Shown here one piece after another: positions 24,351 through 24,924 of a stretch of 64,000 nucleotides of DNA. The notes under the pieces are model-generated. The model searched no databases and was not told where the DNA came from. It was given only the letters and a program-made list of their open reading frames with translations. Source of the DNA: Escherichia phage S127 BCL3; sequence record OQ626344; one strand, written 5' to 3'. The position numbers and the translations under genes were made by a program. Numbering within the stretch: position 1 is the first letter of the stretch; every line of letters begins with the position of its first letter.

Positions 24351-24469
24351 AATTCTAAATGAGAACTTTTCGCATTTCATAAATTTAGTTAGCATGCTAA
24401 TTACCTACCGTGACAATTCTATATAAAATAATACCTCCTTAAATATTTCCATATACAAATTTTAAAAAT

Positions 24470-24645
24470 CCATTTCCGAAAACGAAAAATCGATTTCGTC
24501 CCCAAAAATTTCAGGTCGAGCTCCGGAACGATTTCCAGAAAATCTGATTCAGAAAACGAAAAACAGATCGAGTACTAAGAAATTTATCGAGAAAAATTTT
24601 CAGAAAATTCAATCTTTGAAACGAAAAACAGATCGAGTACTGAGA
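24470..24645. repeat. AT-rich region with three direct repeats GAAAACGAAAAA(C/T)(A/C)GATCGAG and clustered GATC sites
   Basis: repeat copies at 24478, 24552, 24618; candidate origin or operator array. Confidence 0.5.
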
Positions 24646-24879
24646 GAGATGTATCAAAACCTACTGAGAATAATGGGCTTATTGTTATAAAAGGTCAAAG
24701 GTAAGCTGGGAAAGTTCTGGTAGAAGGGTGAGGGTATGTGCGGAAAATTTGGAATAGTAACTTAAAGTACGGTGCGAACGATAGAATGAGCAGCACATCT
24801 TATCGCGCCTGTCTTGAAAAATCCATTTTAGTTTTCGATCCATTTTCTGATTTTCTAAGAATTTTAAAATATCCGGCTA

Positions 24880-24924
24880 GGTAAAATATCAAAAGGAGGA
24901 AATCCATTTTAGAAATCCTCCTTA
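24880..24924 (-). terminator. rho-independent terminator ending minus-strand block
   Basis: AAGGAGGA...TCCTCCTT stem with T-rich tail on minus strand. Confidence 0.55.

Follow-up and report, generated by a model that had tools for sequence, protein, structure and literature searches.

The DNA analysed here is a 64,000-nt stretch of Escherichia phage S127 BCL3 (sequence record OQ626344; below, the window). It contains a module of about 900 bases (about 24040-24925) that in all likelihood is functional, cis-acting non-coding DNA. The module occupies most of a 967-nt gap (23986-24952) within a long series of minus-strand genes, and its parts follow each other in the order two promoters, palindromes similar to Fur boxes, the least stable 60 bp, three repeat units, a spacer, an inverted partial unit and a minus-strand terminator. 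A transcription-activated replication origin fits this layout better than the alternatives and is our leading reading, to which we give somewhat less than an even chance. A first-pass annotation of the window had proposed a candidate origin at this place. The layout on which it relied, with promoters, AT-rich DNA and repeats, is real, conserved across genera and located in DNA that does not tolerate insertions in the near-identical phage Bas54, but the extremes of the GC skew lie elsewhere, and there are rival regions.

A conserved and insertion-intolerant stretch of non-coding DNA

The window comes from a Vequintavirus (rV5-like) coliphage. Positions 23900-25000 are 98% identical to phage B9-1, the closest relative (136 kb), and 85-95% identical to about 110 further records. 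The gap is flanked by short genes only, to which no function is assigned. According to the list of open reading frames (ORFs) of the window, no plus-strand ORF follows either of the two promoters (P1 and P2), and a tRNA/tmRNA search found none of these genes. Several records (the BASEL phages, rV5_ev147, NHEP1 and Murica) annotate short minus-strand ORFs inside the gap. The rV5 genome paper does not discuss it, and the skew analysis in that paper located only changes of transcription direction (PMC3606486). Matches to the locus were absent from 5,426 E. coli genomes, and it is thus not host-derived.

Conservation within the genus was assessed as mean identity to five Vequintavirus relatives. 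It is 96.6% from the promoters to the palindromes (24040-24400), 85.4% in the AT-rich block (24401-24459), 93.5% in the block of the units (24460-24645), 69.5% in the spacer (24646-24815) and 96.2% in the right block (24816-24925), compared to 82-97% for six flanking genes. The values for the conserved blocks indicate selection as strong as that on proteins, while the spacer appears nearly free to change.

A transposon-sequencing preprint on the Vequintavirus Bas54 lists TA sites and insertions per gene (10.1101/2025.11.20.689424), and its tables cover the equivalent of 24062-24657 of the module. The Bas54 map runs in the reverse orientation relative to the window. The correspondence is fixed by the sibling phage Bas55, which has identical TA counts in the same five features. 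In flanking Bas54 genes, 85-100% of the TA sites carry insertions, with 150-600 reads. The immediate neighbours bas54_0099 and bas54_0103 were hit at 18/21 and 12/14 TA sites and were classified as non-essential and intermediate, respectively. Inside the module, insertions were found at 5/15 TA sites of bas54_0102 (window 24062-24346; mean about 13 reads; strong fitness defect), at 0/11 TA sites of bas54_0101 (24401-24505; essential), and at 1/3 TA sites of bas54_0100 (24511-24657; not classified). The insertion-free stretch overlaps the AT-rich DNA. The six genes downstream of bas54_0103 (bas54_0104 to bas54_0109) were hit at 20/22 to 27/27 TA sites (91-100%), with hundreds of reads, and are non-essential. 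As all seven transcriptionally downstream genes tolerate insertions, polarity does not account for the depletion.

The three depleted features do not behave like genes. The bas54_0101 frame begins at a TTG codon and is interrupted by an early stop in the window, B9-1, rV5_ev147 and NHEP1, the start of the bas54_0100 frame is variable or contains stops, and the bas54_0102 frame is frameshifted in three relatives. In other genera, the frames are neither annotated nor conserved, although the DNA motifs are. Therefore, the intolerance to insertions reflects a non-coding function, and bas54_0100, bas54_0101 and bas54_0102 are very probably mis-annotated non-coding DNA. The 'essential' bas54_0101 and the 'strong fitness defect' bas54_0102 of the published essentiality map can thus be reinterpreted as a non-coding cis element. 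The depletion fits a requirement in cis, and does not separate replication, packaging and protection by a bound protein.

Architecture of the module

The coordinates of the parts are collected in Table 1. P1 and P2 are predictions based on a sigma-70-like consensus. Both lie upstream of the repeat array, as the first-pass annotation had it, and P1 is directed rightward, opposing the flanking minus-strand genes. P2 overlaps a perfect TATAAT at 24265-24270 (19-nt spacing). The GCCCCGCCAGGT-type motif, present 11 times in the window compared to 2.2 expected occurrences, has four of its copies clustered at 23862-24116. A repeat search identifies the P1 leader as a duplicate of the P2 leader type, and the P2 leader is likewise G-rich, with non-template G-runs in both leaders.

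Table 1. Sequence features of the module (positions in the window)
Feature	Position	Strand	Description
GCCCCGCCAGGT-type motif cluster	23862..24116	+	four motifs, at 23862, 24028, 24042 and 24105; the last within the P1 spacer
Promoter P1	24096..24124	+	TTGACA, 17 nt, (TGg)CACAAT; 10/12 matches plus TG (promoter scan)
P1 leader	24131..24190	+	G+C-rich, contains GAGACAACCACCGGGG; non-template G-runs, skew +0.25
Palindrome A	24195..24214		TGAGAACGGTTATCA; 16/19 to Fur consensus at 24196, best in the window
Promoter P2	24240..24270	+	TTGCTT, 16 nt, (TGa)TACTAT; read by eye; 8/12 with TG
P2 leader	24274..24320	+	...GAGACAATCACCGGGGGTGCCCG
Palindrome B	24331-24350 (B and C together 24331..24374)		CGAGAATGATTATCA; 15/19 to Fur consensus at 24332
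Palindrome C	24360-24374		TGAGAACTTTTCGCA
AT-rich, easily melted stretch	24374..24475		77-84% AT; candidate DNA-unwinding element
Repeat unit 1	24460-24501	+	TTTTAAAAATCCATTTCCGAAAACGAAAAATCGATTTCGTCC; 3' core diverged
Copy 1 core	24478-24498		GAAAACGAAAAATCGATTTCG; 18/21 matches to the consensus of the first-pass annotation; 3' end TTCG, not CGAG
Repeat unit 2	24536-24577	+	CAGAAAATCTGATTCAGAAAACGAAAAACAGATCGAGTACTA
Copy 2 core	24552-24572		GAAAACGAAAAACAGATCGAG
Repeat unit 3	24601-24642	+	CAGAAAATTCAATCTTTGAAACGAAAAACAGATCGAGTACTG; GAAAAATTTTC box ahead, at 24591-24601
Copy 3 core	24618-24637		GAAACGAAAAACAGATCGAG; one A short
Fast-evolving spacer	24646..24815		plus-strand G-rich; 1-nt indels between relatives (alignment)
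Right block	24816..24892	-	inverted partial unit GAAAATGGATCGAAAAC (24831-24847), AAAAATCCATTTT, two AAATATC motifs (24869-24891)
Terminator hairpin	24893..24925	-	AAGGAGGA...TCCTCCTT, then U-run (minus-strand fold)

The palindromes resemble the Fur box, both in its 19-bp form (GATAATGATAATCATTATC) and in the 7-1-7 core TGATAATnATTATCA. Apart from the sites at 24196 and 24332, a match of 15/19 is found at 12254, in another non-coding region (11100-13660) that is discussed below. Three of the four window sites scoring at least 15/19 fall in the two non-coding regions, and so do six of the nine sites in the B9-1 genome that are within two mismatches of the phage palindrome. Like Fur operators, the phage palindromes come in arrays, here of one to four. 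However, Fur prefers a T (TGATAAT) where the phage palindromes have a fixed G (TGAGAAT), and Fur operators precede iron genes, whereas the phage sites lie in non-coding phage DNA. The likeness to Fur sites is a resemblance and not a demonstration, and the ligand may be a phage protein. Binding of host Fur appears improbable. If it occurred, the iron sensor could act as an architectural or gating factor at replication or packaging regions, or else its titration by hundreds of copies could switch on iron uptake for the phage ribonucleotide reductases. Phage DNA replication would then be tied to the iron status of the host, an unexpected dependency on a host factor.

The array had been described as AT-rich, which holds for part of it. 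The AT content is extreme just upstream of unit 1 and in the DNA overlapping it (24374-24475), but the array itself is 54-78% AT, and 24690-24815, the least conserved part, only 54-58%. No other 60-mer of the 64 kb is as unstable as 24415-24475 (z = 4.2), which is located 145-200 nt past P2, and in the complete B9-1 genome the equivalent segment comes second or third in this respect.

The three repeat copies were found where they had been reported, with starts at 24478, 24552 and 24618 and start-to-start distances of 74 and 66 nt. Each of them forms the 3' core of a longer unit of ~42 nt, and these units follow each other in direct orientation at periods of 76 and 65 nt. In a repeat search, the similarity of copies 2 and 3 extends to 55 nt (78% identity) and that of copies 1 and 2 to 47 nt (72% identity). 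Copies 2 and 3 have 23 exact bases in common, compared to an expectation of 0.15 exact direct repeats of at least 16 nt per shuffled window. GAAAAATTT(T) boxes are found between the three units. The inverted partial copy was also borne out, as GAAAATGGATCGAA on the minus strand (24834-24847, one mismatch). The additional short motifs had been counted as part of the array as well. This is justified for TCGA, which occurs 6 times in 24400-24900, about five-fold more often than the ~1.1 expected from the window density, but not for GATC, of which the gap contains 3 against a window average of 5 per kb. In the B9-1 genome, the unit core occurs at this locus only. Judging from the sequence comparisons, the repeats are not due to chance, as there are three units with a common ~40-nt consensus in the same place in five genera.

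In the spacer, an ORF (24685-24843) is broken in rV5 and NHEP1. The hairpin at the right edge would stop leftward transcription ahead of the module.

A 447-amino-acid N6/N4 DNA methylase (Pfam E = 1e-43) is encoded on the minus strand at 39881-41224, within the replication gene block. If it is Dam-specific, it could methylate the GATC sites of units 2 and 3 and of the inverted copy.

Conservation between genera

The order of the parts is common to Vequintavirus, Seunavirus, Mydovirus, Certrevirus and Henunavirus. Phapecoctavirus, which belongs to another subfamily, has kept the promoters and palindromes, and has different repeats downstream. Outside the genus, BLAST aligns only about 76-158 nt, comprising the P2 leader and the first palindromes, with 70-89% identity in Seunavirus, Mydovirus, Certrevirus, Henunavirus and Phapecoctavirus. 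No other sequence of the locus is conserved as widely as the P2 leader together with palindrome B, which spans two phage subfamilies. Across these subfamilies, whose hosts are Enterobacterales, the palindromes are the most conserved non-coding sequence. Every genus examined has one to four palindrome copies at the equivalent of 24331-24374, with the consensus AAATGAGAATnATT(C/A)TCATTT and the core TGAGAATnATT(C/A)TCA.

In the loci of the other genera, P1 and P2, in some cases joined by a third promoter, precede one to four palindromes and AT-rich DNA. Then come the three direct units, a region that varies, an inverted half-unit and an AAATATC(A) cluster. Analogues of the latter two are present in EC152, Seu621, CR3, CB7 and Hena1. 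Tandem plus-strand promoters are predicted by the scan in CR3, Seu621 and Hena1, with P2 144-160 nt after P1 and with spacers of different sequence. In six of nine loci, the AT-rich stretch lies at or just after the palindromes. The units conform to a cross-genus pattern of ~40 nt, RGAAAAT...TTGAAAA(N2-5)GATCGAG(A/T)(A/C)C, with periods of 63-78 nt. Their 3' core is genus-specific (GATCGAGTAC, GATCGAGAAC, GATCGAGACC), and in Hena1 (CTCAAGTC) it lacks GATC. The pattern fits with palindromes and leader being read by something invariant, and with units that co-evolve with a phage protein.

Two features of the other genera differ from the window. In every genus but Vequintavirus, P1 is followed by a different, highly conserved leader of ~100 nt, GACGCCACCCCACGGCGAAAAGGCGGGGCTAAC...GGAAGGTGGATCGCCGGTAG (CR3 L008 2318-2420, EC152 L005 2808-2912, Seu621 L079 1310-1412, Hena1 L080 1318-1412, anhysbys L004 2872-2975), and in the window the duplicate of the P2-type leader stands in its place. 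A multi-helix fold is predicted for the ~100-nt leader, with one covarying pair (GC to AU, in three of seven sequences) and no Rfam match. In addition, Seunavirus, Mydovirus, Phapecoctavirus and the Certrevirus CB7 have a small plus-strand ORF (63-140 amino acids) directly upstream of P1 (L005 2567-2758, L079 1066-1257, L004 2575-2841, L081 862-1284). It is the sole plus-strand gene of the neighbourhood, and has no counterpart in the window. Its product could be a binding protein for the module.

Wider searches added little. A 15-mer scan of IMG/VR returned 68 loci, of which only five were true relatives. Among 185,579 bacterial genomes scanned with a 21-mer of the P2 leader, there were three chance matches only. 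In two of these, the 21-mer, CACCGGGGGTGCCYGYYATTC, coincides with the 5' part of apparent thiamine (TPP) riboswitches in Deinococcus (L085 2437-2457, L087 5923-5943). The P2 leader as a TPP riboswitch was rejected, because the remainder of the motif is missing and there is no Rfam call. A relation to the plasmid origins in PLSDB was dismissed as well, since the sole match turned out to be a Vequintavirus genome deposited as a plasmid.

A transcription-activated origin as the leading reading

The origin reading takes the promoters, the unstable DNA and the units as parts of a single mechanism. Host sigma-70 RNA polymerase would initiate at P1 and P2, against the surrounding gene flow, and the G-rich leader transcripts would cross palindromic protein-binding sites into 24374-24475. 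There, the transcript could open the duplex or form an R-loop, and so provide both a primer and single-stranded DNA onto which a replisome of the T7 type, with a family A polymerase and a gp4-like primase-helicase, would load its helicase. The three units and, ~190 bp further on, the inverted partial unit may bind a co-evolving phage-encoded factor that positions or limits initiation. The terminator at 24893-24925 would shield the module from incoming leftward transcription. In this scheme, the start of replication at this locus is itself inferred.

Promoters that point into the least stable DNA and have no ORF to express were counted in favour of an origin, and so were the non-template G-runs of both leaders, the terminator that would protect the module, and the probable requirement in cis. 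The replication proteins are of the matching kind, as the first-pass annotation had noted for the polymerase and the primase-helicase. A domain scan of the window proteins identified a family A polymerase, a DnaB-type primase-helicase and also a PIF1 helicase. The Pfam score of the polymerase is just under the cut-off, and the same assignment was made in the rV5 paper (PMC3606486).

Among known origins, several provide partial models. The primary origin of T7 has two promoters, phi1.1A and phi1.1B, ahead of an AT-rich region. Like the module, it has tandem promoters directed into an easily melted AT-rich stretch, is used by a family A polymerase with a gp4-type primase-helicase, and lacks DnaA boxes. 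However, the T7 promoters are those of the phage RNA polymerase, whereas the promoters of the module are of the host sigma-70 type, run against the gene flow and express no gene. Operator-like palindromes and an array of three units, together with its inverted counterpart, are further elements of the module that T7 does not have. In T4, oriF (uvsY) and oriG combine a promoter with a downstream unwinding element and an R-loop primer, and oriE contains iterons. Similarities to the module are the promoter for host polymerase, the unwinding element within 100-200 nt, and repeats as at oriE. In contrast to the equivalent of the module in Bas54, which does not tolerate insertions, the T4 origins are redundant and individually dispensable. 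Moreover, the module has no MotA-type middle promoter, and its units are ~40 bp long with periods of ~70 bp. Iteron origins of plasmids and lambdoid phages resemble the module in having at least three direct repeats adjacent to AT-rich DNA. Their iterons are 17-22 bp long, close to each other, helically phased, and located beside or inside the initiator gene, whereas the units of the module are ~40 bp long, are repeated at 63-78 bp, and have no initiator gene adjacent.

The lytic myovirus ICP1 has the same polymerase and helicase families as the rV5-like phages, and its polymerase is among the closest relatives of that of rV5 (PMC3606486). It uses two separate origins, an early one (theta) and a late one (rolling circle) (PMC7145576). 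These were mapped by coverage, and the comparison with the module concerns the replisome families. The pac site of ICP1 is intergenic and far from any identified small terminase gene (PMC11417361). With two origins and an intergenic pac site in ICP1 as precedents, two indispensable non-coding regions with different roles in the rV5-like phages would be unsurprising.

A number of observations weigh against an origin at the module. No DnaA boxes (TTWTNCACA) are found in 23986-24952, even at one mismatch to TTATCCACA, and there is no match to the consensus of integration host factor (IHF) at the locus. No Rep-like or DnaA-like domain was detected in the ten large proteins scanned, a set that does not extend to the small flanking proteins. 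With ~40-42 nt at periods of 63-78 nt, the units exceed classical iterons (17-22 bp) in both length and spacing, and they are not helically phased. A cluster of GATC (Dam) sites was considered and rejected, as GATC is not enriched in this phage and the Hena1 units do not contain it. In other genera, the leaders are only modestly G-rich. The lack of insertions could be due to a bound protein complex that blocks transposition, rather than to lethality. Finally, the literature on rV5-like phages and Vequintavirinae yielded no origin, transcriptome or replication mapping.

The GC skew does not favour the locus either. The cumulative skew had been suggested as a check, and its minimum is not at the locus, but about 87 kb away in B9-1, with the minimum near 22 kb, the maximum near 122 kb and the locus at 108.7-109.9 kb. 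Locally, the skew at the 1-kb scale takes more negative values on the right side of the locus than on its left side, opposite to the expectation for an origin. However, every turn of the skew coincides with a change of gene orientation. The skew thus reports transcription and has little power as an origin test, which makes this check uninformative.

Moreover, two further AT-rich non-coding regions are equally good candidates for an origin. The first, 11100-13660, is a non-coding region of ~2.5 kb at a convergent junction of plus- and minus-strand genes, and corresponds to the 'non-coding' box in the rV5 paper (PMC3606486). Its DNA is as unstable as the AT-rich stretch of the module, and its equivalent in Bas54 is an insertion-free intergenic region (10.1101/2025.11.20.689424). 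It has AAATATCA motifs and palindromes in common with the module. The four copies of the Fur-like palindrome (12119, 12137, 12235 and 12253; span 12119-12272) are accompanied by four CTGTTTACG motifs, the AAATATCA motifs and other repeat families. An exact 20-nt direct repeat (12706, 12980) brackets an 18-nt perfect inverted repeat (12815, 12949). The region coincides with the maximum of the cumulative GC skew of the genome. The second region lies outside the window, at 24197-24857 of B9-1 (OQ420740.1), and is a third origin candidate. This 660-nt gap contains the least stable DNA of the genome (z = 4.6-5.3), adjoins two 'transcriptional regulator' genes and is close to the minimum of the cumulative GC skew.

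Alternative functions of the module

Of the alternatives to an origin, a role as a hub of transcription control fares best, although we consider it unlikely. The palindromes would serve as operators of host Fur or of a phage repressor, and the repeats would bind a phage regulator, both controlling strong transcription from P1 and P2 that is antisense or insulating. Transcription from P1 and P2 would separate two blocks of a leftward early operon, and insertions would be lost because a complex blocks transposition or because misregulation is toxic. Matches to the Fur consensus of 16/19 and 15/19, the best in the window, are consistent with this proposal, as are the location of palindromes downstream of both promoters, the clustering of the same palindromes in the other non-coding region, the minus-strand terminator at the right edge and the GCCCCGCCAGGT motif within the P1 spacer. 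However, the genes on either side are individually dispensable in Bas54, so that no essential output is evident, and the extreme AT stretch and the unit array are left unexplained. A control hub and an origin are not mutually exclusive.

A packaging (pac) site is a weaker candidate still. According to this proposal, the small terminase would bind the three bent, A-tract-rich units on one side and the inverted unit with its AAATATC motifs on the other, loop the DNA, and direct the first cut to the spacer. The pac site of SPP1 has the structure pacL-pacC-pacR, with A-tract-rich repeated boxes flanking a central region of low conservation. The module is similar in that repeat blocks stand on either side of a fast-evolving spacer of ~170 bp and that A5T3-4 boxes precede units. 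It differs in being remote from the terminase genes and in having strong promoters and operators. The element is indispensable, as expected of pac, Vequintaviruses have been reported as headful-packaging and circularly permuted (published PhageTerm calls), and ICP1 offers the precedent of an intergenic pac site remote from the identified small terminase gene (PMC11417361). On the other hand, about 80 kb separate the locus from the terminase genes in B9-1, and the strongest depletion of insertions is over the promoters, palindromes and AT-rich stretch, not over the spacer. It is also not obvious what tandem promoters that lead into no ORF would contribute to packaging. Sequence records start inside the gap in only two of about 220 cases (EC152 and ETEC-TG), with about one expected by chance.

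It is even more doubtful that the product of P1 and P2 is a functional non-coding RNA with three repeats, either a decoy or antitoxin mimic like the pseudo-ToxI of phiTE, or a sponge for an RNA-binding protein. Such an RNA would account for strong promoters without an ORF and for a repeated, A-rich transcript, and a repeat RNA is known from the rV5-like phage phiTE (PMC3475682). However, eight sub-blocks, analysed on both strands, fold no better than shuffled sequences (z -1.1 to +0.8), and an RNAalifold analysis of the P2 leader in 11 sequences gave a 3-pair helix only and no conserved structure. Rfam 15 has no match in the window at gathering score; at the locus or the CR3 locus, there are only chance-level matches with E > 0.2 (E up to 10). 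The periods of 63-78 nt with unique spacers differ from the head-to-tail, pseudoknot-forming repeats of 34-45 nt in such RNAs, and an inverted copy on the opposite strand suits recognition of DNA better. An anti-defence RNA would also be needless on a K-12 host without restriction, yet insertions are missing there. The more specific idea of a phiTE pseudo-ToxI or type III antitoxin was rejected, because this RNA is encoded at a different locus in phiTE-like genomes and there is no fold signal.

That the stretch encodes small proteins as annotated (bas54_0100, 0101, 0102 and equivalents), with incidental repeats, is very improbable. The short minus-strand ORFs in the records named above and the 'essential' score of bas54_0101 speak for it, but the frames carry stops, frameshifts or variable starts and are absent from other genera. 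The remaining probability falls to readings other than these five.

Significance

For the rV5-like phages (Vequintavirinae) and their Stephanstirmvirinae relatives, no origin, pac site or other cis element has been defined so far. These phages are common in therapy and biocontrol collections. The module of ~900 bp is now delimited, and precise positions can be given for its two promoters, the operator-like palindromes, the candidate unwinding element, and the three units with their inverted partner. Shared motifs tie it to a second insertion-free non-coding region. If the module is an origin, host RNA polymerase can start a T7-type replisome in a large myovirus. An origin would also be a handle for engineering, by indicating insertion sites to avoid and by providing minimal replicons.

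Other observations

An exact 48-nt direct repeat is present in the window at 17918-17965 and 21924-21971, 4 kb apart. It contains a hairpin, GATGGCC...GGCCATC, followed by TAAAAATAAATTT, and is probably a reused intergenic terminator cassette. Seventeen 'Campylobacter phage' records (MG065646-MG065690) are 86-88% identical to the locus, and a 137.5-kb 'E. coli plasmid' (CP057073.1) is a Vequintavirus genome. These records are probably mislabelled or contaminants.

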